From: a bacterium
Lineage (GTDB): Bacteria; JAHJDO01
Direction of reading: 5' to 3'
Assembly: GCA_030652805.1 (NCBI GenBank)
Contig: JAUSPT010000024.1
Span: 37,050-101,049 of the forward strand
Length of the DNA stretch: 64,000 bases
This document shows positions 8,188 through 44,716 of this stretch, one piece after another; position 1 is the first letter of the stretch, and each line of letters starts with the position of its first letter. A program made the position numbers and the translations under genes. Under the pieces are notes generated by a model. The model searched no databases. It was not told the DNA's origin and saw only the letters and a program-made list of their open reading frames with translations.

Positions 8188-8273
8188 AGAAAATTGGAGG
8201 CATAACCCATTACAACGCTAACACTCGCAATGACTTGGCAGGATAGGAATAATTAACCTAAGGAGATAGACAT

Positions 8274-9413: not shown

Positions 9414-9416
9414 ATC

Positions 9417-10208
9417 ATGCAGTTCATTGTTTGTATAAAACAAGTTCCTGATACTGAAGAGATAAACAATGTTAAAATAGATTCCCAGACAAACACAATG
9501 ATTAGAGAAGGGATAAAGAATGTTATAAATCCCTTTGATGAGAACGCAATTGAGGAAGCTCTTAAGTTAAGAGAAAAATATGGAGGCAAGGTCACTGTTA
9601 TCAGCATGGGGCCTCCACAGGTAGAGGCTGCGCTTAAATCTGCTCTGGCAATGGGTGCAGATGAAGCGATACTTATTTGCGATAGAGCATTTGCTGGTTC
9701 AGATACACTTGCTACATCATACACATTGGCTCAAGCCATAAATAAAATAGGGAAGTTTGACATTGTATTATTTGGTAAACAGGCTATAGATGGTGATACT
9801 GCCCAGGTTGGACCTGGTGTTGCAGAACAGCTCGGTATAGCGCAAATAACATATGCCCGAAAAATAGAGATTAATGACAATATATTAAGGGCTGAGAGAG
9901 CATTAGAGAATTCTTTTGAGGTTGTAGAGGTAAAGCTTCCATGCGCGGTGACAGTTACAAAAGAGATTAATGAACCACGTTATGCTTCGATGAAGGGGCT
10001 TCTTATGGCAAGGAAAAAGCAGATTCATGTTTGGAGCGCTGAGGACTTGGATGTTGATAAGGACAAGATAGGGCTGGATGGTTCTCCTACTCAGGTAGTT
10101 AAAATATTCACTCCACAGACAAAACATGAAGGTGAAATTCTGGATGGGACATCTTCAGAAGTTGTAGATAAACTTGTTTCAAAATTAACAGAACATAAGC
10201 TTTTCTAA
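9417..10208 (+). CDS. etfB: electron transfer flavoprotein beta subunit
   Basis: MQFIVCIKQVPDT...NPFDENAIEEAL, ETF-beta signature; follows the ACAD; no etfA follows (tRNAs instead). Confidence 0.88.
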   Translation: MQFIVCIKQVPDTEEINNVKIDSQTNTMIREGIKNVINPFDENAIEEALKLREKYGGKVTVISMGPPQVEAALKSALAMGADEAILICDRAFAGSDTLATSYTLAQAINKIGKFDIVLFGKQAIDGDTAQVGPGVAEQLGIAQITYARKIEINDNILRAERALENSFEVVEVKLPCAVTVTKEINEPRYASMKGLLMARKKQIHVWSAEDLDVDKDKIGLDGSPTQVVKIFTPQTKHEGEILDGTSSEVVDKLVSKLTEHKLF

Positions 10209-26226: not shown

Positions 26227-26925
26227 ATGGGAAGTGCCGAGGAAATGAAGAATTTGGCGCAAGGAATTGTTTCTTCTTATCAGGCCAGAGTTTCTGAAGT
26301 AGCCACGGTCATGGACAATGCTCACCAAATTCTTGAAGATTTTAAGCTCAAAAGAAGTGAGATGAGCAGTCAACTTAGAGAAACCCTTGCCAATGGAGAG
26401 TCTCTCAGAAAAAAGGATTTTGATAATATGATGAAAGGCATCCTTTCCCATCAAGAAGAAAGAGAAAAAGAGGTAAAAGATTTATTAAAGACTTTTTTTG
26501 AAGAACAAAAAGAAATAGCTGAAGCCATTAGGAAGAATTTGGCCGAAGGCGAAAGCGTGAGAATAAGTGATTTTAAAAAGATGCTCCAGGATATTCAGGC
26601 AAGGCAGAAACTCAGGGAAAATGAAGTAAGAACGACCCTAAAGGAATTTCAGGAAGGACATAGGGAGATGGCTGAGTCTTTGCACAGCCTTTTAAATAAA
26701 GAAGAGTCCTTACGGATTGAGGACTTTAAAGAGATGCTAAAAGATATTCGTTCAAGACAGATAGAGCGGAAAAAAGAAGTCAGAACCAAACTTGATGAAT
26801 TCAGGAAAGAACATCAAAATATGACTTCCGAATGGAATAAACTAACCGGTCTTATGGCCGAGAAAAGAGCCAGCAAGCTGAGAGGAGGTGAGAGAGAGGA
26901 AAAGTTGGAAGTTGCCAGGGTTTAA
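26227..26925 (+). CDS. tandem-repeat coiled-coil protein, candidate GvpC-like gas vesicle scaffold/strengthening protein
   Basis: Three ~50-aa repeats of pattern L..GES.R..DFK.ML.DI..RQ..RE.EVR..L.EF...H..M; hydrophilic, predicted all-helical; directly downstream of gvpA as gvpC is in cyanobacteria. Confidence 0.5.
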   Translation: MGSAEEMKNLAQGIVSSYQARVSEVATVMDNAHQILEDFKLKRSEMSSQLRETLANGESLRKKDFDNMMKGILSHQEEREKEVKDLLKTFFEEQKEIAEAIRKNLAEGESVRISDFKKMLQDIQARQKLRENEVRTTLKEFQEGHREMAESLHSLLNKEESLRIEDFKEMLKDIRSRQIERKKEVRTKLDEFRKEHQNMTSEWNKLTGLMAEKRASKLRGGEREEKLEVARV

Positions 26926-26995: not shown

Positions 26996-28027
26996 ATGGG
27001 AATAGCAAGTGATATCAAAGCACTGGGTGAGGACATTGTTGCCTCTTATGATACGCGAGTAAGGGCGATAGGTGTGCTTGTCAAGGACGTCGACAAAATG
27101 CTTAAGGGTCTTCATACGGATCATAAGAGTATGGCTGCCAATCTTAAAGCTGGCCTTAACAAGGGAGAAGAAGATAGGCTCAATGCCTTTAAGCCAATGA
27201 TAGCAGAAATTCAGAAGCGGACAAAGGAAATAGAAGTCTATGTTAAAACTCTGCTCAAAAAGTTTCACAGCGAGCATATGGAAATGTCTGCCAATCTTAA
27301 TGCCTCTCTTGCAAAAGGAGAAGAGGATCGACTTAAGGACTTTAGAGCAATGATGGCTGATGTTAAGAAGTTTGTAGCGGATATGGTTGATACGACTGCG
27401 AAACTGATGAAGCAAATTCAGGCTGAACAGAAAGATAGAAATAAAGGAGTAGCTGATCTCCTTGCAAAGTTTGCGCAAGACCATGCATCTATGGCAGATG
27501 AGCTTAGAAAAAGCCTTGCAAAAGGAGAAACAAACAGGCTTGAAGACTTCAAAAAGATGATAGATAGTATCCAAAAATATGTGGCTGATGTAATTAGTGC
27601 GACTAAGCAGCTAATTAGCGAAATTCAAGCAAGGCAGGATGAGAGAAACAAAGAGGTTCTTGCTCTCTTACAGGCATTCCAGGCCGAAAGAGAAAAGATG
27701 GCTGCTAACTGGCAGGCTCTGGCTGCAACAATGGAGAAGAGAAGAGGCGGTAAGCCGATTCCAGTTAAAGTAGAAGCCAGGCAGGAAGTAAAGACTGTTG
27801 AAGAGGCAGTGAAAGAAAAACCCAAAGCTAAACCTAAGGCTGGGCCTAAACCCAAAACACCTGAAGGTCAGATATTAGCTTTGCTTAGGGAGCATGCTGA
27901 AGGCATGAGCTTGCCGAATTTAGGAAATGAAGCAGGCTGCCACTTTATAAAGCTGACCAGTCCAATGAGAGGTCTGCTGGATAAAGGCAAAGTTAGAAAA
28001 GAAGATAATCTTTACTTTATTGCTTAG
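26996..28027 (+). CDS. tandem-repeat coiled-coil protein (paralog of 26227 gene) with K/P-rich linker and C-terminal winged-helix-like domain
   Basis: Repeats ...SLAKGEEDRLKDF.AMM.D..K.V.D...; KPKAKPKAGPKPKTPEG linker; C-terminal ILALLREHAEGMSLPNL... Confidence 0.5.
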   Translation: MGIASDIKALGEDIVASYDTRVRAIGVLVKDVDKMLKGLHTDHKSMAANLKAGLNKGEEDRLNAFKPMIAEIQKRTKEIEVYVKTLLKKFHSEHMEMSANLNASLAKGEEDRLKDFRAMMADVKKFVADMVDTTAKLMKQIQAEQKDRNKGVADLLAKFAQDHASMADELRKSLAKGETNRLEDFKKMIDSIQKYVADVISATKQLISEIQARQDERNKEVLALLQAFQAEREKMAANWQALAATMEKRRGGKPIPVKVEARQEVKTVEEAVKEKPKAKPKAGPKPKTPEGQILALLREHAEGMSLPNLGNEAGCHFIKLTSPMRGLLDKGKVRKEDNLYFIA

Positions 28028-28043: not shown

Positions 28044-28364
28044 ATGAGCGAGATAAAATGTGCTTTCTGCAAAGGCACGGGCAAGGATCCATTTGATCTT
28101 CTATCCGAGCTTGCTGTCTGCCAGGTTTGCGGAGGCAGGGGTAAAGTTGAGGTAAAAGAGCCGGCAATCAAGTGTGTCTTTTGTAGCAGCACCGGTATCT
28201 ATCCTCGTAGTCGAGTTACCTGCACTGTATGTAATGGCAAAGGAATGGTTGCGGTTAAAGGCGCGACTGACGAGTGCCCTAAGTGCAAAGGCACAGGCAG
28301 AGCAATAGATAGCGGACTTCCCTGCATTAAATGTGGAGGCAAAGGGGTCGTTTCAAAAAAATGA
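28044..28364 (+). CDS. DnaJ-type cysteine-rich zinc-finger (CxxCxGxG repeat) protein
   Basis: Six CxxC(x)GxG motifs (CAFCKGTG, CQVCGGRG, CVFCSSTG, CTVCNGKG, CPKCKGTG, CIKCGGKG), as in DnaJ CR domain. Confidence 0.7.
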   Translation: MSEIKCAFCKGTGKDPFDLLSELAVCQVCGGRGKVEVKEPAIKCVFCSSTGIYPRSRVTCTVCNGKGMVAVKGATDECPKCKGTGRAIDSGLPCIKCGGKGVVSKK

Positions 28365-30127: not shown

Positions 30128-30148
30128 CAACTGCATAGGTGGTTGAGA

Positions 30149-30541
30149 ATGAATTGGAACACATTTGACTTTAAAAGCGGGAAAAGCGGAAGAACCAGGT
30201 CAGGACGAAGGATAGGTGAGATTTTGGAAGGGGATAAGTTTAGATGTTCATTATGCAGAGGCACAGGGATATTACCCCGAACCAAGGGCACAAGATGTCA
30301 TGTATGTAAAGGCTCAGGCATAGTTTCCTTAACCGGACCGGCAGTAGTATGCGCTTACTGCAAAGGCAGAGGCGATTATCCGCCGAGGACAAGTCTTACC
30401 TGTACGGTTTGCGGAGGGAAGGGTTTAGTTAGCATTACCAAACCCATTGAAATATGCGAACATTGCCGGGGAACCGGTGCTGAGCCGGGCAATAAACTAC
30501 CTTGCTTAAAATGCAAAGGTAAGGGTGTGATTACAAAATAG
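30149..30541 (+). CDS. DnaJ-type cysteine-rich zinc-finger protein (paralog 2)
   Basis: CSLCRGTG, CHVCKGSG, CAYCKGRG, CTVCGGKG, CEHCRGTG, CLKCKGKG; AGGTGG RBS, ATG at 30149. Confidence 0.7.
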   Translation: MNWNTFDFKSGKSGRTRSGRRIGEILEGDKFRCSLCRGTGILPRTKGTRCHVCKGSGIVSLTGPAVVCAYCKGRGDYPPRTSLTCTVCGGKGLVSITKPIEICEHCRGTGAEPGNKLPCLKCKGKGVITK

Positions 30542-30558: not shown

Positions 30559-30816
30559 ATGAAAATAGAAGAAGTAGAGAAGGCGATCACAGATTTCTTT
30601 AAGAGCAGTCTTGGTGGAAAGGCAAAAGTAATAAAGATAGTAAAATCTCAGGATGGCTGGACAGGTGAGGCAGAGATTTATGAGGAGAGTTCATTTATTA
30701 AATCTTTAGGACTATCTACCAGAGTTCAGGATAGGAATATTTACGGGATTAAATTGACTGATGCCTTGGAAGTGGTCTCTTACGCGCGAAAAGAGGGATC
30801 TGTAAAAGAGGAATAA
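30559..30816 (+). CDS. GvpO/GvpR-like gas vesicle protein
   Basis: DGWTGEAEIYEESSFIKSLGLSTRVQDRNIYGIKLTDALEVVSYARKE resembles GvpO core (GW.A.VEVVER...DTQD..GRYE..LD...V.GY.R.RR). Confidence 0.55.
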   Translation: MKIEEVEKAITDFFKSSLGGKAKVIKIVKSQDGWTGEAEIYEESSFIKSLGLSTRVQDRNIYGIKLTDALEVVSYARKEGSVKEE

Positions 30817-31132: not shown

Positions 31133-31441
31133 ATGACCAGTATGGAGCGTGAGACTTTAGATGTTATTGCTGAAAATGAGGAGAGAGTCCATTATTACTT
31201 AATAGCTCAGGAATTAAAGGTAAGCGCTCATTATGCCTATGTGATTTGCAAAGGGCTTGAGAGAGACAAATATGTTGATTTTGATACATTTAAAGGAGTA
31301 TGCAGCTTAACAGAAAAAGGTAAAGAAACAGTGGAAGAGAATTGGCTTTTTAAACTTAAGCAGCAAAAGCAGAATATTCAGAAGAGAAGAAAAGAAAATA
31401 AGGGAAAAATTTCTAAGAATGTTGAGGTTGTAAATTATTAA
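31133..31441 (+). CDS. small winged-helix DNA-binding protein (MarR/ArsR-like)
   Basis: LDVIAENEERVHYYLIAQELKVSAHYAYVICKGLERDKYV. HTH + wing pattern; basic C-terminus. Confidence 0.5.
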   Translation: MTSMERETLDVIAENEERVHYYLIAQELKVSAHYAYVICKGLERDKYVDFDTFKGVCSLTEKGKETVEENWLFKLKQQKQNIQKRRKENKGKISKNVEVVNY

Positions 31442-31444
31442 GAC

Positions 31445-31657
31445 GTGAGTATAACAGCTACAGAATTAGAAATACTAAGAATTATAAAAAAGAAAAACGG
31501 TTTAATATCTATGAAAGAGTTAAGCAGTAAAGCAGGGTTTGAGATAGGCTATACCTACATGTTGTGCAAGTCCCTGGAAAAGCAGGATTGTATTGGGTTT
31601 TTTACCCATTCATCTTGTAGAATAACTGCAACAGGCAAAGGTCTGATAAGCGAATAG
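31445..31657 (+). CDS. small winged-helix DNA-binding protein (paralog)
   Basis: ELEILRIIKKKNGLISMKELSSKAGFEIGYTYMLCKSLEKQDCI. Same HTH pattern as the 31133 gene. Confidence 0.5.
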   Translation: MSITATELEILRIIKKKNGLISMKELSSKAGFEIGYTYMLCKSLEKQDCIGFFTHSSCRITATGKGLISE

Positions 31658-31666
31658 GAGGTCGAA

Positions 31667-32053
31667 ATGAGCTGGCAAACAATGGAGTGGAATAAACAAA
31701 AGATCGGGCGCAGAGGAGAGATTTTAACCAGGGATGTCTACAGATGCGGTTTTTGTAGAGGCACAGGTCTCCTTTCTTCTAAAAAGGGGATAAAATGTCC
31801 TGTTTGTTTAGGTAATGGAGAGGCAAAGGTTTCATCTCCGGCTGTAATTTGCGCTTATTGCAATGGAACGGGAAAAAGACATCCTCGAACTACCCTCACC
31901 TGTACTGTTTGCCGAGGAAAGGGTGTTGTGAGCGTGGGAACTTCTGATATTGAAGCTTGTCCTACTTGCAAAGGAATAGGCAGGGAACGCGGCAGGACTC
32001 TTCCCTGTTTAACCTGCAAAGGGACAGGCGTTATTCCTAAAAAGAAGAGATAA
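31667..32053 (+). CDS. DnaJ-type cysteine-rich zinc-finger protein (paralog 3)
   Basis: CGFCRGTG, CPVCLGNG, CAYCNGTG, CTVCRGKG, CPTCKGIG, CLTCKGTG. Confidence 0.7.
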   Translation: MSWQTMEWNKQKIGRRGEILTRDVYRCGFCRGTGLLSSKKGIKCPVCLGNGEAKVSSPAVICAYCNGTGKRHPRTTLTCTVCRGKGVVSVGTSDIEACPTCKGIGRERGRTLPCLTCKGTGVIPKKKR

Positions 32054-32085
32054 TATTTTAGTATTAAATGTACAGGGAGAAAAAA

Positions 32086-32604
32086 ATGGCTAAAGAAAAG
32101 AAAAAAAATGAAGAAGCGGTAGGTTTTGATTTTGGCATTGGTGGGCTGTTTAAAGGTATTGAGAAATTAGTTGACCTGGCAGCAGATTTAAAAGAGGCCG
32201 GAGGGGAGATTAAGAAAGAAGGCGAAATAGACCTGAGCCATCTTAAGAAAGGGATGAAGGGAGTATTTGGATTTTCTGTAAAAAGCGCGGTGGGAGGAAA
32301 ACCAACAGTTGAGACATTCGGCCACAAAATTAAGAAGACCCCTGAAGGTCCCACGGTTGAAGAAGAGAGAGAGCCTATCATAGATGTATTTGATGAAAAA
32401 GAAGAGATCCGAGTCTATGCTGAGATGCCGGGGGTAAATGACGAGTCTATATCGGTTGATTTAAAAGGGGATATATTAGAAATAACAGCTGTAAGTAAGG
32501 ATAGAAAATACCGCAAGGAAATTTTGCTTCCTGCTAAAGTTGAATCTAAAACTTTAGAGAGGAGTTTTAAAAACGGTATCTTAGAAATAAAAATAAAGAA
32601 ATGA
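32086..32604 (+). CDS. gvpH: Hsp20/alpha-crystallin-domain protein, GvpH-like
   Basis: C-terminal ACD: IDVFDEKEEIRVYAEMPGVNDESISVDLKGDILEITAV...ERSFKNGILEIKIKK; RBS AGGGAG before ATG 32086 (ORF track starts at 32068). Confidence 0.75.
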   Translation: MAKEKKKNEEAVGFDFGIGGLFKGIEKLVDLAADLKEAGGEIKKEGEIDLSHLKKGMKGVFGFSVKSAVGGKPTVETFGHKIKKTPEGPTVEEEREPIIDVFDEKEEIRVYAEMPGVNDESISVDLKGDILEITAVSKDRKYRKEILLPAKVESKTLERSFKNGILEIKIKK

Positions 32605-32607
32605 TAT

Positions 32608-33543
32608 ATGGCATTAACAGGATTAAGAGAAGATGCGTTAAAACTGGTTTTATTTGGAGGGAAGGGCGGCGTAGGAAAGACAACCTGTGCATCAAGCACA
32701 GGCTTTTATTTAGCAAAGAATTTCAGGACATTGCTTTTTTCAACAGACCCGGCACATTCGCTCTCTGATAGTTTAGAGCAGGACATTGGCAGTAACATAA
32801 TAGAGGTGAAAGGGACAAAAAACTTGAGTGCTTTTGAAGTAAGCGCAGAAAAAGCTCTTTCTAGATTCAAGATAGAACATGAAGACCAGATAAAAAAGAT
32901 TTTGGATACCTCTACCTATTTAGATGAGGAAGACATTGATTCCATCTTTGATTTGCCTATTCCCGGGATGGATGAAGTGATGGGGTTCAAGACAATTGTT
33001 GATTTAATAGAGGAAGCTAAGTTTGACAAGTACATTGTAGATACCGCGCCTAGCGGTCATGCGATGAGACTTCTGACTTTACCTGACCTGCTGGATGACT
33101 GGGTCAAGGTTATGGCAAAGATGAGATGGAAGTATAGATATATGGTGGAAAGATTTGGCGGAAGATATAATCCTGACGAAGGCGATGATTTCTTATTAAC
33201 TATGAAAAAGACCGTAAAGAGAATAGAAAATCTTCTTAAGGATCAAAAAAGGTGTGAATTTATAGCAGTTACCATTCCGGAAGATATGGCAATTTTAGAA
33301 ACCGGGAGAATGATAAATAATTTGAACGACTATGGCATAAAAGTGAGGCAATTAGTAATAAATAATGTTGTAGAATCGCAGGATTGCGGATTTTGTAGAG
33401 AAAGAAGAAAAGGGCAGGAGAAACATATAAACAGGATAATGAAAAAGTTTGATGACTTAAAAATAACAATTGTCCCTTTGCAATCAAGGGAGGTTAAAGG
33501 TATAGATACCTTGAATAATTTTAAAGAGATGCTATTTCAATAA
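32608..33543 (+). CDS. ArsA/Get3-family P-loop ATPase (single ATPase domain)
   Basis: Deviant Walker [11 protein letters not shown]; ArsA/Get3 signature [12 protein letters not shown] (cf. DTAPTGHTLRLL); [11 protein letters not shown]. Confidence 0.75.
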
Positions 33544-35711
33544 TGGGAAAAAAGAACTCAGCTCTTACACTTAAAGTAAAAGAAGCTCTGCCAAAGGATG
33601 CAGGAAGGGCTATCGCCAGGATTGACCCGGAAGATATGAAAACTCTTGGAATAGAAGTGGGCGAGGTTGTAGAGATTGACGGTAAAAGAAAAACTCCTGT
33701 CAAAGCAATGCCATCTTACGTAGAAGATAGAGGGAAAAAGACTATTCAAATGGATGGAATATCCAGAGAGAATGCGCAGATTGGACTGGATGAAAAGGTA
33801 AAGATCAGCAAGATTGACTATAAGTCTGCTAACAAAATCACACTCTCGCCTCTAACTGCATCAAGTCTGCTTCAAAGAGATAAAGATACCAGATATATCG
33901 GGTCGCTTATGGAGGGGCTTCCTGTAACCAGCGGCGATAGGATTAGAGCTACGCTTTTTGGCTCAAGATCCTGCGATTTTAAGGTGCTGGATACTATTCC
34001 TGCGGGTGTAGTTTTAATAAACCAGACTACTTCAATAAAGATGAAGACAAAGGGAGCAGAAAAAGAGAGGTCAGCCAAAGTTTCATATGAAGATATTGGC
34101 GGGCTTGATAAGCCAATCCAAAGAATCAGGGAGATGATAGAGCTTCCTTTAAAATATCCTCAAGTATTTGAAAGATTAGGAATTGATCCGCCGAAAGGCG
34201 TTTTTCTCCATGGTCCTCCGGGTTGTGGAAAAACCTTAATCGCTCGGGCCGTGGCTAATGAAACAGATGCTTATTTTACCAGCATAAGCGGACCGGAAAT
34301 TATGGGGAAGTTTTATGGGGAGAGCGAAGCTCGCCTCCGTTCCATATTTGAAGATGCTCAGGCACATGCGCCTGCTATCATATTTTTGGATGAGATTGAA
34401 TCTATTGCTCCAAAAAGAGAAGATATGGGCGCTGAAAAACAGGTTGAGCGAAGAGTAGTAGCTCAGCTTCTGGCTCTGATGGATGGATTAGAATCAAGGG
34501 GACATGTTGTTGTTATAGCTGCAACCAATTTGCCTAATACAGTTGATCCGGCTTTGAGACGGCCAGGCCGTTTTGACAGAGAATTATCTATCCCTATTCC
34601 GGATAAAAATGGGCGATTAGAAATTTTACAGATACATACAAGAGGAATGCCTTTGGCAGAAGATGTGAGTTTAGAGAGATTAGCTGAGATTACTCATGGA
34701 TTTGTGGGCGCGGATTTAGAATCATTAGCAAGAGAAGCAGCAATGTCAGCGTTAAGAAAGATTTTGCCTAAGATAGATTTTGAATTAGCGGAGATACCTT
34801 ATGAGACTCTTTTAGAATTGCAGGTTACTATGGACAATTTTTTGGAGGCATTGAAAGAAATAGAGCCTTCTGCTATCCGCGAGGTATTTGTTGAGATTCC
34901 TGATGTCCGGTGGGATGAGGTTGGTGGATTAGATGAAATAAAGAAGTCTTTAATTGAAGCCGTGGAATGGCCTCTTAAATACAGCAGATTATTTGAGCAC
35001 GTCAAAACAGAGCCGCCTACAGGCATTTTGCTCTCCGGTTCTCCGGGTACGGGAAAGACTTTGGTAGCCAAAGCATTAGCTACTGAGAGCGGGGTTAATT
35101 TTATTTCTGTTAAAGGCCCTGAGATTATAAGTAAGTATGTGGGTGAGTCAGAACGCGCTGTCCGTGAGATATTTAAAAAGGCAAGAATGGCTGCTCCATG
35201 TATTTTATTCCTGGATGAAATAGACAGTCTGGTTCCTACACGCGGAAGCGCTGGAGGGGATTCACAGGTAACCGAGAGAGTGATCAGCCAATTTCTTACC
35301 GAACTTGGAGGGATAGAGAGATTAAAGGGCGTAGTAGTGATTGGTGCGACCAATAGATTAGATATGATAGACACCGCAGTATCAAGGGCGGGAAGGTTTG
35401 ATATCCATTTAAACTTTCCATTACCTGATAAAAAGACAAGACTCAGAATTTTTGAAATTCATGCTAAAGACAAACCATTAGATAAAGATGTAAATTTAGA
35501 AAAATTAGCAGATCAAATAGAAGAATATTCCGGAGCAGATATTGAAGCTGTTTGCCGTCGCGCGTCTATGCTTGCTATAAGAGGATATATAGAAAATCAA
35601 AAGGCAAAAAGCAAAGATCAAAAATTAGAACTCAAGATATCAAAGAGCAATTTTGAAGAAGCTATTAGTTTACTAAAAGAACAGAAGAACGAAATAAAGG
35701 GGGGTGGTTAA
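33543..35711 (+). CDS. CDC48/VCP-like AAA+ ATPase (N-domain + D1 + D2)
   Basis: CDC48-N-like start; two AAA modules with Walker A GPPGCGKT and GSPGTGKT, Walker [20 protein letters not shown] regions; archaeal/eukaryotic-type architecture. Confidence 0.85.
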
Positions 35712-35862: not shown

Positions 35863-36867
35863 ATGGCTGAAATTGGAAAATATATTTATGGAATTATAAG
35901 TTCTAATACGAACTTCCGCCTTTTTATCTCGGAGGATAGCATACATGCGATTCCTTATCAGGATATCTCGGCTGTAGTAGGAGACTCTGAGATAATCGAT
36001 TACACCTGTATATCTAAAGGTGATGTGGCGAAAATGCTGGTCAGGCATCAAAAGGTTATTGAAGGCGTTATGAGTTCAGGGCTTACAATTATTCCTATGA
36101 AATTAGGTACATTCGCTGTTTCGGAAATTGAGGTCAAAGATATTTTGGATAGAGGATATAACCTCATTAAGGAGATTATGGAGAAGACGGGCGATAAAAT
36201 AGAGATTGATATAGTCGCCACATGGAGTGATTTTCCTTCAATTCTTAAAGAGGTTGGGGAAGAGAGAGAAATTAAAGAATTCAAAGAAAGGCTTTTAGCT
36301 AGTCCAAAAGAGATAACCATAACTGAGCAAATGAAAGTAGGGCTTATGGTTAAGAAAGCATTGGATACAAGAAAAGAAAAATATGCTGAAAAGATAAAGA
36401 ATGCACTGGAAACTCTAAGCCAGGATCTAAAGTTGCATGAACTCATGGACGATAATATGGTTGCTAATATAGCCTTTTTGATAAATAAAACCCGGCAAAT
36501 AGAATTTGATAAAAAGATAGAAGACCTAAACACTGAATTTCACGATGAGTTAAATTTTAGATGTATAGGTCCGCTTCCGCCTTATAGTTTCTATACGCTT
36601 GAGATAAAAAAGATGAAATTTGACGAGATTGATTGGGCAAAAAAGAAGTTGAGGTTAAATGATTTTGCAGGTAAAGATGAAATTAAGAAAGCTTATCGAA
36701 GAGTAGCCGCCTCTTCCCATCCTGATAGAAATCCGGATATACCGGCTAAAATTTTTGATGATGTAAACAAAGCTAATAAGATACTTATTGATTATTGCAA
36801 AGCTCGTGAACAAGCAGGCGAGGAAGAATTTGAAAAGAACGCAATATTGATCAAAGTGAGGGAGTAA
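35863..36867 (+). CDS. GvpF/GvpL-family protein fused to C-terminal DnaJ J-domain
   Basis: N-terminal YIYGIISS...AIPYQDISAVV (GvpF/L hallmark); C-terminal KKAYRRVAASSHPDRNPD...ANKIL J-domain with HPD tripeptide at nt 36718-36726. Confidence 0.8.
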   Translation: MAEIGKYIYGIISSNTNFRLFISEDSIHAIPYQDISAVVGDSEIIDYTCISKGDVAKMLVRHQKVIEGVMSSGLTIIPMKLGTFAVSEIEVKDILDRGYNLIKEIMEKTGDKIEIDIVATWSDFPSILKEVGEEREIKEFKERLLASPKEITITEQMKVGLMVKKALDTRKEKYAEKIKNALETLSQDLKLHELMDDNMVANIAFLINKTRQIEFDKKIEDLNTEFHDELNFRCIGPLPPYSFYTLEIKKMKFDEIDWAKKKLRLNDFAGKDEIKKAYRRVAASSHPDRNPDIPAKIFDDVNKANKILIDYCKAREQAGEEEFEKNAILIKVRE

Positions 36868-38414: not shown

Positions 38415-38653
38415 TGTTTTTAATTGATGATATATTCCTTGCGCCATTGAAAGGGGTGGTTTGGCTTGGCAAGAAGATGAATGAGGTTATAGAGAAGGAA
38501 ATCTCTGATGAAGGGCGGATAAAAGAGAAACTTATGGAATTACAAATGCAGTTTGAACTTGATGAAATAAACGATGAAGAATATAAGAAGCAGGAAGAAG
38601 AACTTTTAGCGCGATTGGACGCTATTAGAAAAGCAAAAGAAGAGGAGGTGTGA
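38414..38653 (+). CDS. gvpG: gas vesicle protein GvpG
   Basis: MFLIDDIFLAPLKGVVWLGKKM... typical GvpG N-terminus; ATG overlaps upstream TAA. Confidence 0.8.
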   Translation: MFLIDDIFLAPLKGVVWLGKKMNEVIEKEISDEGRIKEKLMELQMQFELDEINDEEYKKQEEELLARLDAIRKAKEEEV

Positions 38654-38913
38654 AGATGGCTAATATGGAAGAAGCTAAGAAAGCAGTTGCAGAGTTTTTA
38701 AAAAAGACCCTTAATGTCAAAGATGTAAAGGTTATTAAGGTTGGAAAGAGCGAAAAGGGCTGGGAGACAGAAGCAGAAGTATATGAAGAAAGTTCATTTA
38801 TAAAGGCTCTCGGACTTCCAACAAGAGTAAAGGACCGGAATATCTATGAGATTAAATTGGATGATAAGTTGGAAGTAGAGTCTTACGAACGTAAAAAGGA
38901 AGAGAAGGAATAG
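38650..38913 (+). CDS. GvpO/GvpR-like gas vesicle protein (paralog of 30559)
   Basis: KGWETEAEVYEESSFIKALGLPTRVKDRNIYEIKLDDKLEVESYERKKEE. About 55% identical to 30559 product. Confidence 0.55.
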   Translation: MKMANMEEAKKAVAEFLKKTLNVKDVKVIKVGKSEKGWETEAEVYEESSFIKALGLPTRVKDRNIYEIKLDDKLEVESYERKKEEKE

Positions 38914-38959: not shown

Positions 38960-39325
38960 ATGGCTTTAGAGGCGACAAGAGGTAATGGTGGTGATAACGG
39001 AACTCTGGTTGACGTAATAGACCGCATTCTGGATAAGGGTTTAGTCATCAATGCGGATATTACTGTATCCGTAGCGGGGGTTGAATTACTTGGTGTAAAG
39101 GTTCGGGCAGCTCTGGCTTCATTTGAAACCGCAGCAAAATATGGTTTAGAATTCCCCTCAGGCACTAATTACGAAACCGCGGCATGGAAAGAGGCGGCAA
39201 AAGGTAAAGATGAATGTCCGCAGTGTGCTAAAAAGGTACTGACAGATGAACTGATGAATAAAGGATGCCCTTGGTGCGGCTGGCAAAGCGCTAAGGCAAA
39301 ACTAAAACCAAAACAAATAGTCTAA
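38960..39325 (+). CDS. GvpA-family domain fused to C-terminal zinc-ribbon
   Basis: [48 protein letters not shown], then CPQC...GCPWCGW. Confidence 0.75.
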   Translation: MALEATRGNGGDNGTLVDVIDRILDKGLVINADITVSVAGVELLGVKVRAALASFETAAKYGLEFPSGTNYETAAWKEAAKGKDECPQCAKKVLTDELMNKGCPWCGWQSAKAKLKPKQIV

Positions 39326-39330
39326 ATTCT

Positions 39331-39597
39331 ATGAGCAAAAAGGAAAAATCGAGATTAGGCGGGTTTAATCTTCTAGGCATTCCTCTAGACCCTACTTTGG
39401 GTGTAGGAGATAAGGTTTTAGACCATGTAGATGAATCAATAGAAGCTGAAAAAAGAAAAGAAGCGGGTTCTAAATATTGGGCCCGTTGCTCTTTCTATTA
39501 CACTGTTTGCCCTAAATGCAGTCGTAAGGTAATTACTGAAGAGTTGGAAGAAAAGGGATGTTTTGTTTGTGGATATAAACCTAATAAGGAGGAGTGA
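39331..39597 (+). CDS. stand-alone zinc-ribbon protein homologous to C-terminus of the 38960 gene product
   Basis: CPKCSRKVITEELEEKGCFVCGYK parallels CPQCAKKVLTDELMNKGCPWCGWQ. Confidence 0.5.
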   Translation: MSKKEKSRLGGFNLLGIPLDPTLGVGDKVLDHVDESIEAEKRKEAGSKYWARCSFYYTVCPKCSRKVITEELEEKGCFVCGYKPNKEE

Positions 39598-40038: not shown

Positions 40039-40605
40039 ATGGATGAAGAAAAAAAGCGAAATCCTGAGAAGCAAAGAGATAAAAAGAAAGAACCTGGTAG
40101 AGAAAAGGAAGAGGGTATAGCAGGAGAAACTCTTAAAGGGATTGGTAAGATGATTCCAGGATTGGGTGGATTGTTCAGGGGTCTGAGAAAATCTCCAGTA
40201 TTCAAAGAAAGATTAAAAAAGATTGATGAAGAAGTAGAGCGCAAGTTGAAGGAAGCTCCCTTAGAAAAGACAGAAAAAGGAAAATTTAAGATAGAGGGAA
40301 AGTTTGAAGCAAGGCATTTAGCTCCAGATAAACCATTTATGAGAAAGGAAGTTTCTCCTCCAATGCCACAGGAAAGGTCAGCAGATATTTTTGACGAGGA
40401 AGATCATATTAAAATAATAGCTGAAATCCCCGGCGTAGATGCAAATGATATAAATCTTAATTTGCAAGGGAATAAACTTACTATATCTGTAGATACCCTT
40501 GACCGTAAATATCATCAGGAATTGAAACTACCCTGCGAACCTAAAGGGGAATTGCAGAAGTCTTATAAGAATGGGATCTTAGAAGTAAAGATAAAAAAGG
40601 AATAA
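40039..40605 (+). CDS. Hsp20/alpha-crystallin-domain protein, GvpH-like (paralog 2)
   Basis: ADIFDEEDHIKIIAEIPGVDANDINLNLQGNKLTISV...QKSYKNGILEVKIKKE. Confidence 0.75.
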   Translation: MDEEKKRNPEKQRDKKKEPGREKEEGIAGETLKGIGKMIPGLGGLFRGLRKSPVFKERLKKIDEEVERKLKEAPLEKTEKGKFKIEGKFEARHLAPDKPFMRKEVSPPMPQERSADIFDEEDHIKIIAEIPGVDANDINLNLQGNKLTISVDTLDRKYHQELKLPCEPKGELQKSYKNGILEVKIKKE

Positions 40606-40629: not shown

Positions 40630-40953
40630 ATGCCAATAGATATTGATGAGGATAATCTAAAACACGGGGTTTTAGGGCTGGTTATTGCTTTAGTGGAGGT
40701 AATTAAAGATGCTCTTAATCTCCAGGCAATGAAACGTATGGAGGGAGGATCTCTTACGGAAGAAGAGATGGAACGATTGGGCGAAGCCCTTATGGATTTA
40801 GATGTGGCAATTGAGGATATAAAAAAGGAACAGGGTGTTACTGAGTCAGTTAAATCCGTAAGGGATGGATTGGATAGTATTGTGGATGATGTATTAGACA
40901 AGATGATAAATCCAGAAAGATGGAGGAAAGAAGCAGAGGAGAAAGGAATTTAA
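40630..40953 (+). CDS. gvpK: gas vesicle protein GvpK
   Basis: GVLGLVIALVEVIKDALNLQAMKRMEGGSLTEEEMERLGEALMDLD matches GvpK signature (GLAKLVLTVVELLR..LERQA.RR...GSLT.EE.ERLGEAL.DLD). Confidence 0.8.
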   Translation: MPIDIDEDNLKHGVLGLVIALVEVIKDALNLQAMKRMEGGSLTEEEMERLGEALMDLDVAIEDIKKEQGVTESVKSVRDGLDSIVDDVLDKMINPERWRKEAEEKGI

Positions 40954-40954
40954 G

Positions 40955-41719
40955 ATGAATGAAGCAAGATATCTTTATTGTATAGCCGATGGAAATAAAA
41001 AGATAACATTTGGCAATATTGGAATAGAGGATAGCGAAGTCTACACTATCCCTTATGAAGATTTATGCGCTGTAGTTCATAATTGTCCTTCAGAGCCCTA
41101 CAAATCAGAGGATAATGAAGTGGTGAAAAAATGGGTAACGGCTCACCAGAAGGTTGTTGATACTGTCTGGGGAAAATTTGGCACTGTCTTACCATTGGGT
41201 TTTGATACCATAATTAAAGGCGAGAAGGGGACTACCCCGGATAAGAATATGAAGAATTGGATTAAAGAAGATTACAAAAATTTAAAAGAAAAGATAGCTA
41301 AGCTTAAAGGCAAGGCTGAGTATGGGGTTCAGATTTCCTGGGACCCTAAGGTGATTGGAGAAAAGTTAATAGAAAGTAATCAAGAGATTAAGAAATTAAA
41401 TGAGGAGATAAAATCCAAATCCAAGGGTCTTGCTTATATGTATAAACAGAAACTGGAGAATCTCTTGAAGAAAGAGATGGAAGTGGAGGCGGAAAGGCAT
41501 TTTAAAGATTTTTACGAGAAAATTAAAAAATGTGCGAATGAAATTAAAGTAGAAAAGACTAAAAAACTTGAAGAAGGAAAACAAATGCTGATAAACCTTT
41601 CTTGTCTTTTACCCAAAGAAAAAAGCAAGGTATTAGGCGAGGAGTTAGAAAAGATTAACGATATGGAAGAATTCTACGTTCGCTTCACTGGTCCCTGGCC
41701 GCCATATAGTTTTGTATAG
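40955..41719 (+). CDS. GvpF/GvpL-family gas vesicle protein (4th paralog)
   Basis: RYLYCIADGNKKITFGNIGIEDSEVYTIPYEDLCAVVH; FTGPWPPYSF. Confidence 0.75.
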   Translation: MNEARYLYCIADGNKKITFGNIGIEDSEVYTIPYEDLCAVVHNCPSEPYKSEDNEVVKKWVTAHQKVVDTVWGKFGTVLPLGFDTIIKGEKGTTPDKNMKNWIKEDYKNLKEKIAKLKGKAEYGVQISWDPKVIGEKLIESNQEIKKLNEEIKSKSKGLAYMYKQKLENLLKKEMEVEAERHFKDFYEKIKKCANEIKVEKTKKLEEGKQMLINLSCLLPKEKSKVLGEELEKINDMEEFYVRFTGPWPPYSFV

Positions 41720-41727
41720 GATAAAAA

Positions 41728-42834
41728 ATGGAACCGACCCGCAATGTTCAGGCAACTTTGGTTGATTTATTGGATAGGATACTGGATAAGGGGCTGGTAA
41801 TCAACGCCGATATTATCATCTCTGTGGCTGGTATTCCTTTAATCGGCGTTAATTTGAGAGCGGCGTTAGCAGGAATGGAGACTATGCTTAAATACGGGGT
41901 GATGCAGTCCTGGGATGAGAAGAGCAGGGCATGGGAGAGGGAACATCAGAAGAAGGCTCTTCCTTCTCTGGTTGAAGGGGAGAAGATCGCCCTGAAAATA
42001 TATGGTTCTTATTATTATAGTAAAGGAATATATAATGCCTGGAAACCAGGCTATTTTTATTTAACTAATAAAAGGCTTATTCTTCACCGTCAGGATTTTG
42101 ATGAAATCACCTTTCAGATACCATTAGAAAAAATAAAAGCATTAATAGTGAAAGAGGAAGAGCATTTTGTTAAAGAAAAGAAAAAACAGGTGCTTTATCT
42201 TATGGATAGACAGGATCAAGCGCATCGGCTTAGCGCAGTAGAGGCAAACCAATTAAAAGAGGCTATTGAACAAAGAATAAAGGATATGGGACTTTGTCTG
42301 GAAGAAAATCCTGTTCTTCCAGAGTTTGTGGATGAGCGAATTGCAGGTTCGCTGATGGAAGAAGAAAAGGTTAGTCATCAAGGGAAGAAAGTGTGGTATT
42401 TAGTGCCGCCTGAAGGAATTCAACAAGAGACCTGGAGACCGGGTCATCTCTATCTTACCAATAAAAGATTATTTTGGTGGTATGATTTTGATAAAAGAAT
42501 AGTTTTTGATGTTTCTGTTGATAAAATAGTTGGCGTTAATGCCGAGATGAGAAAAACAAGCGGTCTTGATAGTAAGAAAGAGAAAATCCTTGATATACTA
42601 TACGGGGTTAATTCAACAAAAAGAACAGCTTCTTTTGCCGGAAAGGAAATAGATGAATGGGCGGAAGCGCTAAACAGGATTGTTCCCGGCAAGATAAATG
42701 AGGAAATCGAAACCTGCCCCCAGTGCGGCAGGCCCGCCCCGGCCAAAGAATTATTAGAAGAGAGTTGCCAGAGCTGTGGCTGGGTCAGCCCTAGATTAAA
42801 AAAGAAGATAGCTCAAGCGGCTTTATCAGCATGA
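41728..42834 (+). CDS. GvpA-family domain fused to two GRAM/PH-like domains and a C-terminal zinc ribbon
   Basis: N-terminus ATLVDLLDRILDKGLVINADIIISVAGIPLIGVNLRAALAGMETMLKYG (GvpA fold); two W(K/R)PG(Y/H)(F/L)YLTNKRL modules (GRAM/bacterial PH signature); CPQCGR...CQSCGW. Confidence 0.7.
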   Translation: MEPTRNVQATLVDLLDRILDKGLVINADIIISVAGIPLIGVNLRAALAGMETMLKYGVMQSWDEKSRAWEREHQKKALPSLVEGEKIALKIYGSYYYSKGIYNAWKPGYFYLTNKRLILHRQDFDEITFQIPLEKIKALIVKEEEHFVKEKKKQVLYLMDRQDQAHRLSAVEANQLKEAIEQRIKDMGLCLEENPVLPEFVDERIAGSLMEEEKVSHQGKKVWYLVPPEGIQQETWRPGHLYLTNKRLFWWYDFDKRIVFDVSVDKIVGVNAEMRKTSGLDSKKEKILDILYGVNSTKRTASFAGKEIDEWAEALNRIVPGKINEEIETCPQCGRPAPAKELLEESCQSCGWVSPRLKKKIAQAALSA

Positions 42835-44039
42835 GAAGTTATTTAGATACTATAAGAAAACCGGTTAATTTACCTTTGCTTCAGGGCGAAGAAGTGCTTA
42901 AGTATTTTACGGCGAGCTACGATGTTGGGAGTTCACTTGCCTCATCCTGGAGACTGGGAAATTTATATCTTACCAATAAGAGACTGCTTTTTGTCCAGGG
43001 AAGAAAGATACTATTTGAGGGCCTGCTCAGCCAAATAAAGACTATAAATATAGTAAAGAGAAGATGGATTTTGGGTAAGAAAGTAAAACAACTAAGTATA
43101 GTATCTGAAGGCAGGAGAGCGCCATATATTGCCATAAAAGACCCTGAAGAATGGAAAAAAGCAATCCTTTCTGATCCACAGTCCCCAGTCCATAACTCGC
43201 AACCTGATGAAGTAATTTTAAAAGGAAGGGGTGGTTATTTAACTCCCGGTCAATCAAAGTGGAGGCTTGGCACTCTTCTCCTTACCAATAAAAAACTCGC
43301 ATTTTCCCAGTTGAGGGGAATTGTATGGGAGACGCCACTCAGCAGTATTAAGGGTTTAAGAATAGAAAAAAGAGTTTACGGGGTCAGTAAAAGTGATGCG
43401 ATATGTGTGGAATATGAATCTTTGGGTGAATTATTAAAAGCATGGATTATATCGCTTAATTTAGAGACTTGGAGAAAAGAGCTATATGAGAGAGTATTAC
43501 TAAAAGTAGATCGGGAGACATTAGATAAAATTGTTACCGAATTGGATCCAGGTTCAAAAGGGATACTCTGGTTTCTTTATGAGAACCGACACGCAAGAAT
43601 CGATATCTTAGCCAAGCTCATAAAGTCTCCTACCCATATGGATGTTTTACTTAAAATAAGGGAGATTATAAACCCAACAGCTGAAAAGCTCATCGGCTAT
43701 CCTATACTCTCATTCGAGAGTTCAAAAGTTGACTGGGAAACTGGCGAGAAAGTTACGTTTAGCTGGTGGCTCGCTGGTCAGCCTTATAGAGAGAAAATGG
43801 AGCCGCTTCTGGACATATTTGATGAGGATGCTGAGCTGGTAGTCTATTTAGAGATGGTAGGTATTAAAGAAGATAAGTTATGCTTAAGTGTGGTGAATAA
43901 CAAACTTATTATTGATGCAGATAAAAATTATCATAAAGAAATTTCTCTTCCCGCAGTGGTTAATACAAATAGTTTTACCAAGAGGTATAAAAATAATATA
44001 TTGGAAGTAAGGTTAAAAAAGGGAAAGTGTAACAGGTGA
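42831..44039 (+). CDS. two GRAM/PH-like domains fused to C-terminal Hsp20/alpha-crystallin domain
   Basis: WRLGNLYLTNKRLLFVQ and WRLGTLLLTNKKLAFSQ modules; C-terminal ACD LLDIFDEDAELVVYLEMVGIKEDKLCLSVVNNKLII...KRYKNNILEVRLKK. Confidence 0.7.
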   Translation: MRSYLDTIRKPVNLPLLQGEEVLKYFTASYDVGSSLASSWRLGNLYLTNKRLLFVQGRKILFEGLLSQIKTINIVKRRWILGKKVKQLSIVSEGRRAPYIAIKDPEEWKKAILSDPQSPVHNSQPDEVILKGRGGYLTPGQSKWRLGTLLLTNKKLAFSQLRGIVWETPLSSIKGLRIEKRVYGVSKSDAICVEYESLGELLKAWIISLNLETWRKELYERVLLKVDRETLDKIVTELDPGSKGILWFLYENRHARIDILAKLIKSPTHMDVLLKIREIINPTAEKLIGYPILSFESSKVDWETGEKVTFSWWLAGQPYREKMEPLLDIFDEDAELVVYLEMVGIKEDKLCLSVVNNKLIIDADKNYHKEISLPAVVNTNSFTKRYKNNILEVRLKKGKCNR

Positions 44040-44716
44040 GAAAACTTATTTATGTGCCGATTATACATATGAGCGCTGACTTAGGCAGTGTTGCCAAGCA
44101 GGTAAATAAAAGAGGTATTGCAGATTTTGGAGAGGAATTCTGGAAGAAACACAGAGAGACTGTGTCCGGCTTTTGGGATTCGATTGTAAAATATTTTGCC
44201 AATTTAGAGGTTAAAGATTTTAAGATATACCAGGATGGCTTGGTAGCTGATGGAGAAGTTGGCCAAAAAATAGTGGAGGAAGGCGTTAAATCCGGCAGTA
44301 AAAATTATGAAGTTATCGATGATTTATTGAAGAAAGGGGGGATTTTAGTCCAGACAGAGGATTTCCCTCTGGTTAAAGAAGAAAGAGATCGTATTGTTAA
44401 AATTACCCAGGCTAAGACGATAACAACGAAGTTAATAGCATATTTAGGATATAGATTGACTAAGGATTGGTTACTAAGGAAAAGAGATAATTATATAGCT
44501 AAGAGGATAGATGAAACTTTAGAACATGGCGGAGAAAAGGGCATCCTCTTTTTAGGTGCATACCACAACATAATACCTGAACTCTCTAAAAAAATTCAGA
44601 TAACTGAGGTAAAGGAAGCAAAAAAAGTAAGGGATTATCAAAGATTGCTTCTCTCATTTAGAAAGAATAAAGAAGAATTTGAAGAGTTAGCAAGATATTT
44701 AATCTCACCAATATAA
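44036..44716 (+). CDS. hypothetical protein, last gene of gvp locus
   Basis: ORF contiguous with cluster (alternative GTG start at 44036, ATG at 44066); no motif recognised. Confidence 0.4.
   Translation: MRKLIYVPIIHMSADLGSVAKQVNKRGIADFGEEFWKKHRETVSGFWDSIVKYFANLEVKDFKIYQDGLVADGEVGQKIVEEGVKSGSKNYEVIDDLLKKGGILVQTEDFPLVKEERDRIVKITQAKTITTKLIAYLGYRLTKDWLLRKRDNYIAKRIDETLEHGGEKGILFLGAYHNIIPELSKKIQITEVKEAKKVRDYQRLLLSFRKNKEEFEELARYLISPI

Follow-up and report, generated by a model that had tools for sequence, protein, structure and literature searches.

A GvpM-type gas-vesicle protein with a PH-PH-zinc-ribbon extension and its PH-tagged alpha-crystallin neighbour

The two genes and their place in the gvp cluster

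The 64,000-nt stretch of bacterial contig JAUSPT010000024.1 analysed here (the window, to which all coordinates refer) carries a gas-vesicle (gvp) cluster that lies on one strand (+), spans about 25.8-44.7 kb and holds gvpA, N, F/L, G, K and O genes. At its 3' end are two adjacent genes, P1 and P2. We show that P1 combines a GvpA-family core with two PH-like modules and a zinc ribbon, and that P2 combines two related PH-like modules with an alpha-crystallin domain (ACD). We conclude that the GvpM-PH fusion, conserved and widespread but without a description in the literature searched, elaborates on the least understood gas-vesicle proteins and is not a new system. Both genes are open reading frames (ORFs) that the original prediction, made from the letters of this DNA alone, had placed correctly, and they divide into domains as follows.

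41728-42834, + strand: P1, GvpM-type protein with PH-PH-zinc-ribbon extension, 368 aa (ORF, Pfam/NCBIfam)
41728-41952, + strand: P1 aa 1-75, GvpA-family core of GvpM type (Gas_vesicle, NCBIfam, tblastn and PDB matches)
41965-42297, + strand: P1 aa 80-190, PH-like module a (Pfam GLUE/PH/GRAM/bPH_3, AlphaFold2, Foldseek)
42364-42687, + strand: P1 aa 213-320, PH-like module b (AlphaFold2; hhalign against module a, 98.3% probability)
42703-42795, + strand: P1 aa 326-356, C4 zinc ribbon, CPQC...CQSCGW (invariant Cys)
42831-44039, + strand: P2, PH-PH-mid-ACD protein, 402 aa (ORF, homologs)
42864-43175, + strand: P2 aa 12-115, PH-like module a (AlphaFold2, Foldseek; hhalign against P1 module a, 97.7%)
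43206-43496, + strand: P2 aa 126-222, PH-like module b (AlphaFold2, Foldseek, hhalign)
43500-43784, + strand: P2 aa 224-318, mid domain, four helices and a beta hairpin (AlphaFold2)
43785-44024, + strand: P2 aa 319-398, alpha-crystallin (Hsp20-like) domain (ArsA_HSP20 1.9e-5, Hsp20 matches)
44036-44716, + strand: 226-aa ORF, overlapping the P2 stop by GTGA

The gene order at this end of the cluster is GvpK, GvpF/L, P1, P2 and the 226-aa ORF: P1 starts 8 nt past the end of GvpF/L, the start of P2 overlaps the stop of P1 in ATGA (gcATGAga), and the GTGA overlap follows. Since a promoter and terminator scan of 35.5-45.2 kb returned no more sites than shuffled sequence did, the limits of this operon are given by gene spacing alone. 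The 226-aa ORF had no match in Pfam, NCBIfam or the PDB; homologs of it occur, in varying position, in about 30 of 80 related gvp loci.

The GvpM-type core of P1

Membership of the P1 N terminus in the GvpA family is clear in profile searches. Pfam PF00741 (Gas_vesicle) matches aa 10-48 (E 3.9e-17, 62.5 bits, cut-off 25), and in phmmer aa 1-80 match GvpA chains solved by cryo-electron microscopy (8gbs, 2.9e-10; 7r1c, 1.9e-8), ungapped over aa 6-58, with the GvpA alpha1-beta1-beta2-alpha2 core alignable to P1. The original prediction had read this region as a GvpA/J fold; the family stands, and the placement within it shifts towards GvpM. Among NCBIfam models the core scores best with halo GvpM (2.8e-28), followed by GvpJ (1.3e-15) and GvpA (about 1e-10 to 1e-11), while the GvpJ-like neighbour at 38960 reverses this pattern (GvpJ 2.3e-28, GvpM 1.1e-15). 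Moreover, in tblastn against plasmids the best Halobacterium match of P1 is gvpM (50.7% identity over aa 1-67), and LRAALAG in the P1 core is the counterpart of the RAAIA motif of GvpJ/M (PMC8716928). Taken together, these comparisons show that the core is specifically GvpM-like rather than GvpA-like. Since P1 scores 97.4 bits with halo_gas_GvpM, a haloarchaea-specific model with a cut-off of 109 bits, we call it GvpM-type and not an equivalog.

The PH-like arm and zinc ribbon of P1

The two GRAM/PH-like modules and the terminal CxxC...CxxC ribbon that had been predicted for P1 were both recovered. In Pfam, Vps36-GLUE (Vps36_ESCRT-II) matches two stretches of P1 above threshold (34.2 against 24.1 bits), and three related models fall just under their cut-offs (GRAM 21.5/23.6, PH 22.4/25.1, bPH_3 21.8/23). 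The AlphaFold2 (AF2) model, computed from a 38-sequence alignment, shows a pair of seven-stranded beta-sandwiches, both with a helical cap, at aa 87-186 and 215-318 (pLDDT about 75-90), followed by a small ribbon and a terminal helix; the same order, a seven-stranded sandwich closed by a C-terminal helix, is modelled for all four PH modules of P1 and P2. Foldseek against the PDB matched P1 at probability 1.0 to tandem-PH proteins, including BBS5 (6.7e-9), FARP1/2 PH-PH, FACT Spt16M/Pob3, Rtt106, centaurin and archaeal CheF. Pfam zinc-ribbon matches to the ribbon are weak, and none of its four cysteines (C330, C333, C347 and C350) varies across 38 homologs.

When the PH-PH region of P1 was used as a phmmer query against 1.84 billion representatives, 120 matches were returned, most of which begin at about residue 80, directly past a Gvp core; the P1 subtype of PH module is therefore practically private to Gvp fusions and gvp clusters.

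Domain organization of P2

The AF2 model of P2 contains PH modules at aa 22-113 and 128-222, a four-helix and hairpin domain at 228-314 and a beta-sandwich at 320-397. Foldseek gives the same tandem-PH matches as for P1, at probability 1.0, and although all PH-clan Pfam models stay below their cut-offs, hhalign aligns the P2 modules with those of P1 at 84-98% probability. Scanned alone, the ACD matches ArsA_HSP20 (24.6 against 22.5 bits, 1.9e-5), and the C terminus matches Hsp20 4rzk in the PDB (9.8e-14) and the NCBIfam archaeal Hsp20 model (4.9e-19), in the latter case with a score of 68.5 that lies below the equivalog cut-off of 140. P2 had been predicted to consist of two PH-like modules and an alpha-crystallin domain; these are all present, but the list lacked the mid domain (aa 224-318), which is the best conserved part of P2 (84% mean identity). 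Neither single sequences nor a 24-sequence profile of the mid domain gave a significant Pfam or PDB match; weak HTH-like matches (E >0.01) were seen, and the domain is possibly winged-helix-like.

Shared and shuffled modules

The comparison of all four YLTNKRL modules that accompanied the original prediction as a proposed check places them in one homologous set: hhalign probabilities are 84-98% (E 7e-6 to 1.4e-14), against about 0.1% for unrelated-domain controls, and W..G..L.LTNK.L is common to all four. P1 has its zinc ribbon in common, as a paralog, with the C terminus of the GvpJ-like protein at 38960-39325 (J-Zn), and the ribbon CPxC...GCxxCGW occurs three times in the window, at the end of J-Zn, as a stand-alone ORF of 88 aa and at the end of P1 (42703-42795); related loci also hold Zn-Zn tandems and, once, Zn-ACD. 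The ACD of P2 is 38% identical to the stand-alone Hsp20 encoded at 40039. Within this type of gvp cluster the PH and Zn modules behave as exchangeable adaptors: they are reshuffled, turning up both on shell paralogs (J-Zn, M-PH-PH-Zn) and on proteins of a chaperone-like kind (PH-mid-ACD, Zn-ACD, Zn-Zn, free PH). Shuffling of this sort would be expected if the adaptors link the components of one machine.

Distribution and conservation

P1 is 100% identical to NCBI MDO9463984.1, labelled 'MAG: gas vesicle protein [bacterium]'. Its homologs, taken as the 120 best of 934 matches, are almost all of about 365 aa, share 60-87% identity with it and have its Pfam pattern; sources among these best matches include Atribacterota, Desulfaltia, Actinomycetota, Bacteroidales, Thermodesulfovibrionales and Methanobacterium. 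Full-length homologs number more than 100 for P1 and more than 100 for P2. To compare gene neighbourhoods, one genome per species was scanned, and of 310 related stretches 80 loci were kept; hidden Markov models (HMMs) of the domains, built from alignments, were then run on all ORFs of the window and these loci. A Gvp-PH(-PH)(-Zn) fusion is encoded in 81 of the 81 sequences. The proposed search for homologous fusions thus yielded more than 100 proteins and 80 loci, the latter from about 20 phyla. Bacterial hosts include Desulfobacterota, Atribacterota, Chloroflexota, Nitrospirota, Verrucomicrobiota, Ignavibacteria, Acidobacteriota, Zixibacteria and Planctomycetota, and archaeal hosts include Methanothrix, ANME-1 (Methanophagales), Methanocellales, Bathyarchaeota and Nanoarchaeota. 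The census gave the following counts.

Gvp-PH-PH-Zn: 55
Gvp-PH-PH: 16
Shorter Gvp-PH forms: 9
Gvp-Zn: 62
Zn-Zn: 17
Zn alone: 15
PH-mid-ACD: 29
PH-PH-mid-ACD: 9
mid-ACD: 8
Free PH: 9
Zn-ACD: 1

The module conserved in these loci comprises GvpJ-Zn, a small zinc-ribbon protein, Hsp20, GvpK, GvpF/L, GvpM-PH-PH-Zn and PH-mid-ACD. Of the 58 loci whose upstream flank reaches 4 kb or more, 57 have J-Zn upstream of the fusion, and a mid-domain gene is present in 39 of the 45 loci with at least 5 kb downstream, PH and mid occurring together in 33 of these 45. Within P1, mean identity is 91% across phyla for the Gvp core, 58-64% for the PH modules and 70% for the zinc ribbon; since the folded parts thus keep 58-91% identity against 31-54% for linker and tail, purifying selection acts on every folded domain of P1. 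Considering that identity between phyla reaches 60-87%, we infer that this type of gvp cluster has spread horizontally.

Shorter variants of the fusion, without the zinc ribbon (~331 aa) or with a single PH module (~240-260 aa), are found in loci L012, L013, L039, L055 and others, and in L044, L047, L075, L078 and L080; truncation or a frameshift in the gene call may account for some of them.

In the searchable literature, whose coverage leaves out most subscription journals, no Gvp protein with PH/GRAM-like domains was found to be described. The statement in the original prediction that no GvpA-PH fusion was known therefore holds for that literature, but the proteins themselves are common in databases, where they are labelled 'gas vesicle protein', 'GvpJ', 'Hsp20 family' or 'hypothetical', and include a RefSeq 'GvpJ' of Streptomyces.

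Cultured hosts

On a finished plasmid of Streptomyces sp. SGAir0924 (NZ_CP027299.1; positions 7001-9594 of locus L081) adjacent genes encode J-Zn, M-PH-PH, GvpK and GvpL/F. The J-Zn protein (151 aa) has a ribbon like that of J-Zn in the window, and the RefSeq 'GvpJ' (WP_137962300.1, 303 aa) is 34% identical to P1 across the core and both PH modules and lacks the ribbon. The Streptomyces module adjoins a gene for a B12-binding-domain protein, and no gvpA or gvpN lies within the 15 kb shown; the four-gene set may be a stand-alone 'nucleation' module, or may have a function other than buoyancy.

In Methanothrix metagenome-assembled genomes (MAGs) the order is J-Zn, M-PH-PH-Zn, Zn-Zn and then mid(-ACD). 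In the gas-vacuolate isolate Methanothrix thermoacetophila, Mthe_0069-0073 are annotated as gvpG, gvpA, 'gvpM', gvpK and gvpLF and are expressed (PMC10470525), an order that fits the J-Zn, M-PH-PH, K, L/F order of Streptomyces and makes Mthe_0071 a candidate for the fusion; a homolog search and cluster look-up for the fusion in cultured Methanothrix returned MAG entries alone.

A possible role in vesicle nucleation and the alternatives

GvpJ and GvpM are small, hydrophobic proteins present in low amount. We suggest, and would give it about an even chance, that P1 is a sparse GvpM-type subunit of the nucleation complex or tip that carries a PH-PH-Zn docking arm, to which a PH-tagged GvpH-like holdase, P2, is bound or co-targeted. 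The hydrophobic alpha-beta-beta-alpha core would be a sparse component of the nucleation complex or the conical tip, in line with reports on GvpJ/M/S, which are absent from the cylinder and present in purified bicones (PMC10903477), and the C-terminal arm of about 290 residues, with its two PH-like modules and zinc ribbon, would lie on the cytosolic face as a protein-docking platform. The C terminus of GvpA is reachable by cytosolic GvpU/T (PMC10903477), and the C-terminal parts of Halobacterium GvpM and GvpJ are the binding site of GvpF/G/H/L (PMC8716928). P2, a putatively GvpH-like holdase translationally coupled to P1, in which an ACD and mid domain are joined to PH modules paralogous to those of P1, would bind the arm or share its targeting, being brought there by its PH and mid domains, and would keep aggregation-prone GvpM, GvpJ and GvpA assembly-competent where the vesicle starts. 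Since the lattice, with its 8-kDa positions, has no room for a 33-kDa arm at each of them, P1 should be sparse and not rib-forming, and the earlier suggestion that the arm tethers a chaperone to the vesicle rib is unlikely on steric grounds. Considering the ATGA overlap, the co-occurrence in 39 of 45 loci, the paralogous PH modules and the precedent of haloarchaeal GvpH, which is reported to prevent aggregation of GvpM (PMC9501494), it is plausible that the shared PH modules allow P1 and P2 to bind each other or to be targeted together.

Several observations weigh against this proposal. The archaeal loci (Methanothrix, ANME-1) keep GvpM-PH-PH-Zn with a mid-ACD partner that lacks a PH module, and a mid-domain gene is missing in 6 of the 33 loci with at least 9 kb downstream, so a PH-PH handshake is not universal; mid-ACD is the conserved core of the partner, and the P1 arm may bind mid-ACD or another Gvp protein. 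The original prediction had called the ACD of P2 GvpH-like: it is of the Hsp20/ACD kind and paralogous to the stand-alone Hsp20s of the cluster, but P2 differs from the GvpH/Hsp20 proteins of gvp clusters in its two N-terminal PH modules, its mid domain and an ACD that is closest to the ArsA_HSP20 type. There was no match of P2 to Pfam GvpH (PF05455) at E <= 0.1, and among the proteins of the cluster the sibling Hsp20 at 32068 alone matches that model, below threshold (E 5.7e-4). A C-terminal I-x-I tail, which serves oligomer assembly, is typical of oligomeric small heat-shock proteins; P2 lacks it and ends ...NNILEVRLKKGKCNR right past the last ACD strand. Additionally, AF2 confidence in the P1 core is low (pLDDT <50 for aa 1-41, from the shallow 38-sequence alignment), so that the shell fold of P1 is an assignment from sequence.

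It has to be considered whether the arm binds lipid instead, in which case the PH/GRAM-like modules would recognize anionic membrane lipids and GvpM-PH-PH would start vesicles at the cytoplasmic membrane or hold them there, with P2 recruited alongside. Many GRAM, GLUE and PH domains do bind phosphoinositides, and the best fold matches include the PH domains of centaurin, TAPP1 and GRK2; the pI of all four P1 and P2 modules is mildly basic, at 8.9-10.0, a value that does not discriminate lipid from protein binding. Gas vesicles, however, are lipid-free and located in the cytoplasm, the top structural matches are protein-binding tandem-PH proteins, and W..G..LYLTNKRL is a structural beta-strand core common to the protein-binding PH-like domains of BBS5, FACT, TFIIH p62 and CheF rather than a recognized lipid-binding loop. 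Restriction of the PH subtype to gvp clusters is also a better fit to a gvp-specific protein ligand, and we regard a lipid tether as unlikely. The arm might equally need no partner, and fold on or cap a hydrophobic hairpin, that of its own or of a neighbouring Gvp core, as a solubility device, an intramolecular chaperone or a terminator that limits where a rib starts or stops, for instance by fixing the geometry of the tip or the width of the vesicle. Without its helpers GvpM forms aggregates (PMC9501494), PH/PTB folds take up extended peptides by beta-augmentation, the tandem PH of FACT/Rtt106 are histone chaperones, and the disparity between arm and lattice position would on steric grounds put P1 at a special or terminal position; but AF2 gives no confident contact between core and arm (pTM 0.42), and the presence of PH modules on an ACD protein and as a free ORF would be left unexplained, which makes capping, too, an improbable function.

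That the PH and Zn modules bridge vesicles to each other or attach them to another cell structure, by analogy with GvpU/GvpT of Bacillus megaterium, seems to us very unlikely. Known clustering factors are cytosolic and do act via C-terminal extensions of GvpA-family proteins (PMC10903477), and adaptor modules repeated on several proteins could crosslink vesicles. GvpU/GvpT are nevertheless unrelated to P1/P2 in sequence and fold, are Bacillota-specific and act in clustering and not in nucleation. The P1/P2 genes belong to the nucleation block (J, K, F/L) rather than being neighbours of gvpA/C. In addition, P1 and P2 have no low-complexity or phase-separating segment, and the Streptomyces module consists of J-Zn, M-PH-PH, K and L/F alone, which points to an early role in assembly. 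As the source genome was assembled from a metagenome, an artefact in which a frameshift or a chimeric assembly joined gvpM to an unrelated PH gene was also considered, and we reject it as having practically no chance of being correct: the architecture is uninterrupted in more than 100 independent database proteins and in 80 loci that represent many phyla and assemblers, with single-cell genomes and the finished Streptomyces plasmid among them.

Relation to known systems

With GvpM/GvpJ of Halobacterium salinarum P1 shares the core sequence, the RAA(I/L)A motif and a gene position among gvpF/L, G and K. Haloarchaeal GvpM, however, has 84 aa with a short, dispensable tail, in contrast to the folded extension of P1. 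GvpA homologs with C-terminal additions have precedents in Anabaena flos-aquae GvpJ (six 21-aa C-terminal repeats) and in a GvpA-like-GvpK fusion (PMC10903477), but there the additions are repeats or a Gvp protein, whereas that of P1 consists of globular PH-like modules and a zinc ribbon that are reused on a chaperone. BBS5, Vps36 GLUE, FACT Spt16M/Pob3/Rtt106 and archaeal CheF, which are mostly protein-binding adaptors or chaperones, have the tandem PH fold and the G.LYLTN.R-type strand motif in common with P1 and P2; their sequence identity to P1/P2 is 9-18%, and they differ from the P1 subtype in its restriction to gvp clusters.

For gas-vesicle biology the arm could be of use as a natural tag. 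The 33-kDa folded arm of this GvpM should be visible in cryo-electron tomography or subtomogram averaging, and it can be retrieved as a soluble domain in pull-down experiments, so that the location and partners of GvpM become directly testable. The fusion also shows that a protein of the GvpA family can carry a large globular domain at its C terminus, and such tolerance of cargo is relevant to gas vesicles engineered as acoustic reporters or display particles. Further, the chaperone-rich and horizontally spread cluster type is found predominantly in lineages of anaerobic and subsurface organisms (Atribacterota, Desulfobacterota, Chloroflexota, Methanothrix, ANME-1), in which, to our knowledge, gas vesicles have hardly been studied, and its core module is also found in Streptomyces, a genus with established genetic tools.

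Other genes of the cluster

The remaining genes assigned within the cluster are as follows.

25822, + strand: gvpA
26227-26925 and 26996-28027, + strand: two repeat proteins, directly 3' of gvpA
28587, + strand: GvpN
30832, + strand: second GvpA-family gene
32068, + strand: Hsp20 (sub-threshold Pfam GvpH match, E 5.7e-4, 20.4 bits, cut-off 22)
32608, + strand: ArsA/Get3-like ATPase (4.6e-79)
33543, + strand: Cdc48-like double AAA+ ATPase
35863-36867, + strand: GvpF/L fused to a C-terminal DnaJ J-domain (Pfam GvpL_GvpF 8.3e-50, DnaJ 3.2e-10, HPD motif)
36875 and 37614, + strand: second and third of four GvpF/L genes
38414, + strand: GvpG
38650-38913, + strand: GvpO-like, ~86 aa (GvpO match 4.4e-6, above cut-off)
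38960-39325, + strand: J-Zn, GvpJ-type protein with C-terminal zinc ribbon (halo GvpJ 2.3e-28)
39331-39597, + strand: 88-aa stand-alone zinc-ribbon protein (domain HMM census)
40039-40605, + strand: stand-alone Hsp20-like protein (Pfam/NCBIfam)
40630-40953, + strand: GvpK (Pfam 1.5e-18)
40955-41719, + strand: fourth GvpF/L (Pfam 1e-67)

Chaperone-type genes of the window thus comprise three Hsp20 domains, the ArsA/Get3-like ATPase, Cdc48, the fusion of GvpF/L with a J-domain and three DnaJ-type zinc-finger proteins. It is conceivable, although we consider it doubtful, that they form an adaptor-based delivery pathway for a lipid-free organelle, in which a nucleus or tip of GvpM-PH-PH-Zn and GvpJ-Zn would display PH and Zn 'address' modules at which PH-mid-ACD and Zn-ACD holdases, together with the ArsA/Get3-like ATPase, Cdc48 and the J-domain and DnaJ-zinc-finger proteins, would dock and deliver amphipathic GvpA, in the way that tail-anchored proteins are passed on by the Get pathway. 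Earlier work has already noted the occurrence of Hsp20 genes within gvp clusters (PMC2963123, PMC7325909).

The Hsp20, ArsA/Get3-like ATPase and Cdc48-like genes form an adjacent trio (32068-35711, +) within the cluster; ArsA and Hsp20 in gvp clusters are on record in PMC2963123, where a mention of Cdc48 was not seen. Three small proteins encoded at scattered places in the cluster (28044-28364, 30143-30541 and 31667-32053, +) are built entirely from CXXCXGXG zinc-finger repeats of the DnaJ type (Pfam DnaJ_CXXCXGXG, 3.6e-13 to 2.7e-11). The two repeat proteins 3' of gvpA matched no family; they are made of helical repeats, one with three 51-aa repeats and the other with repeats spaced by 69 aa, and may be GvpC-like shell stiffeners. 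Two small winged-helix ORFs inside the cluster (31133-31441 and 31445-31657, +), with weak MarR/HTH_24 matches, are possible regulators. Finally, the ORF at 30559-30816 (+, ~86 aa) is a paralog of the GvpO-like protein at 38650-38913, with a weak GvpO match of its own (0.13).

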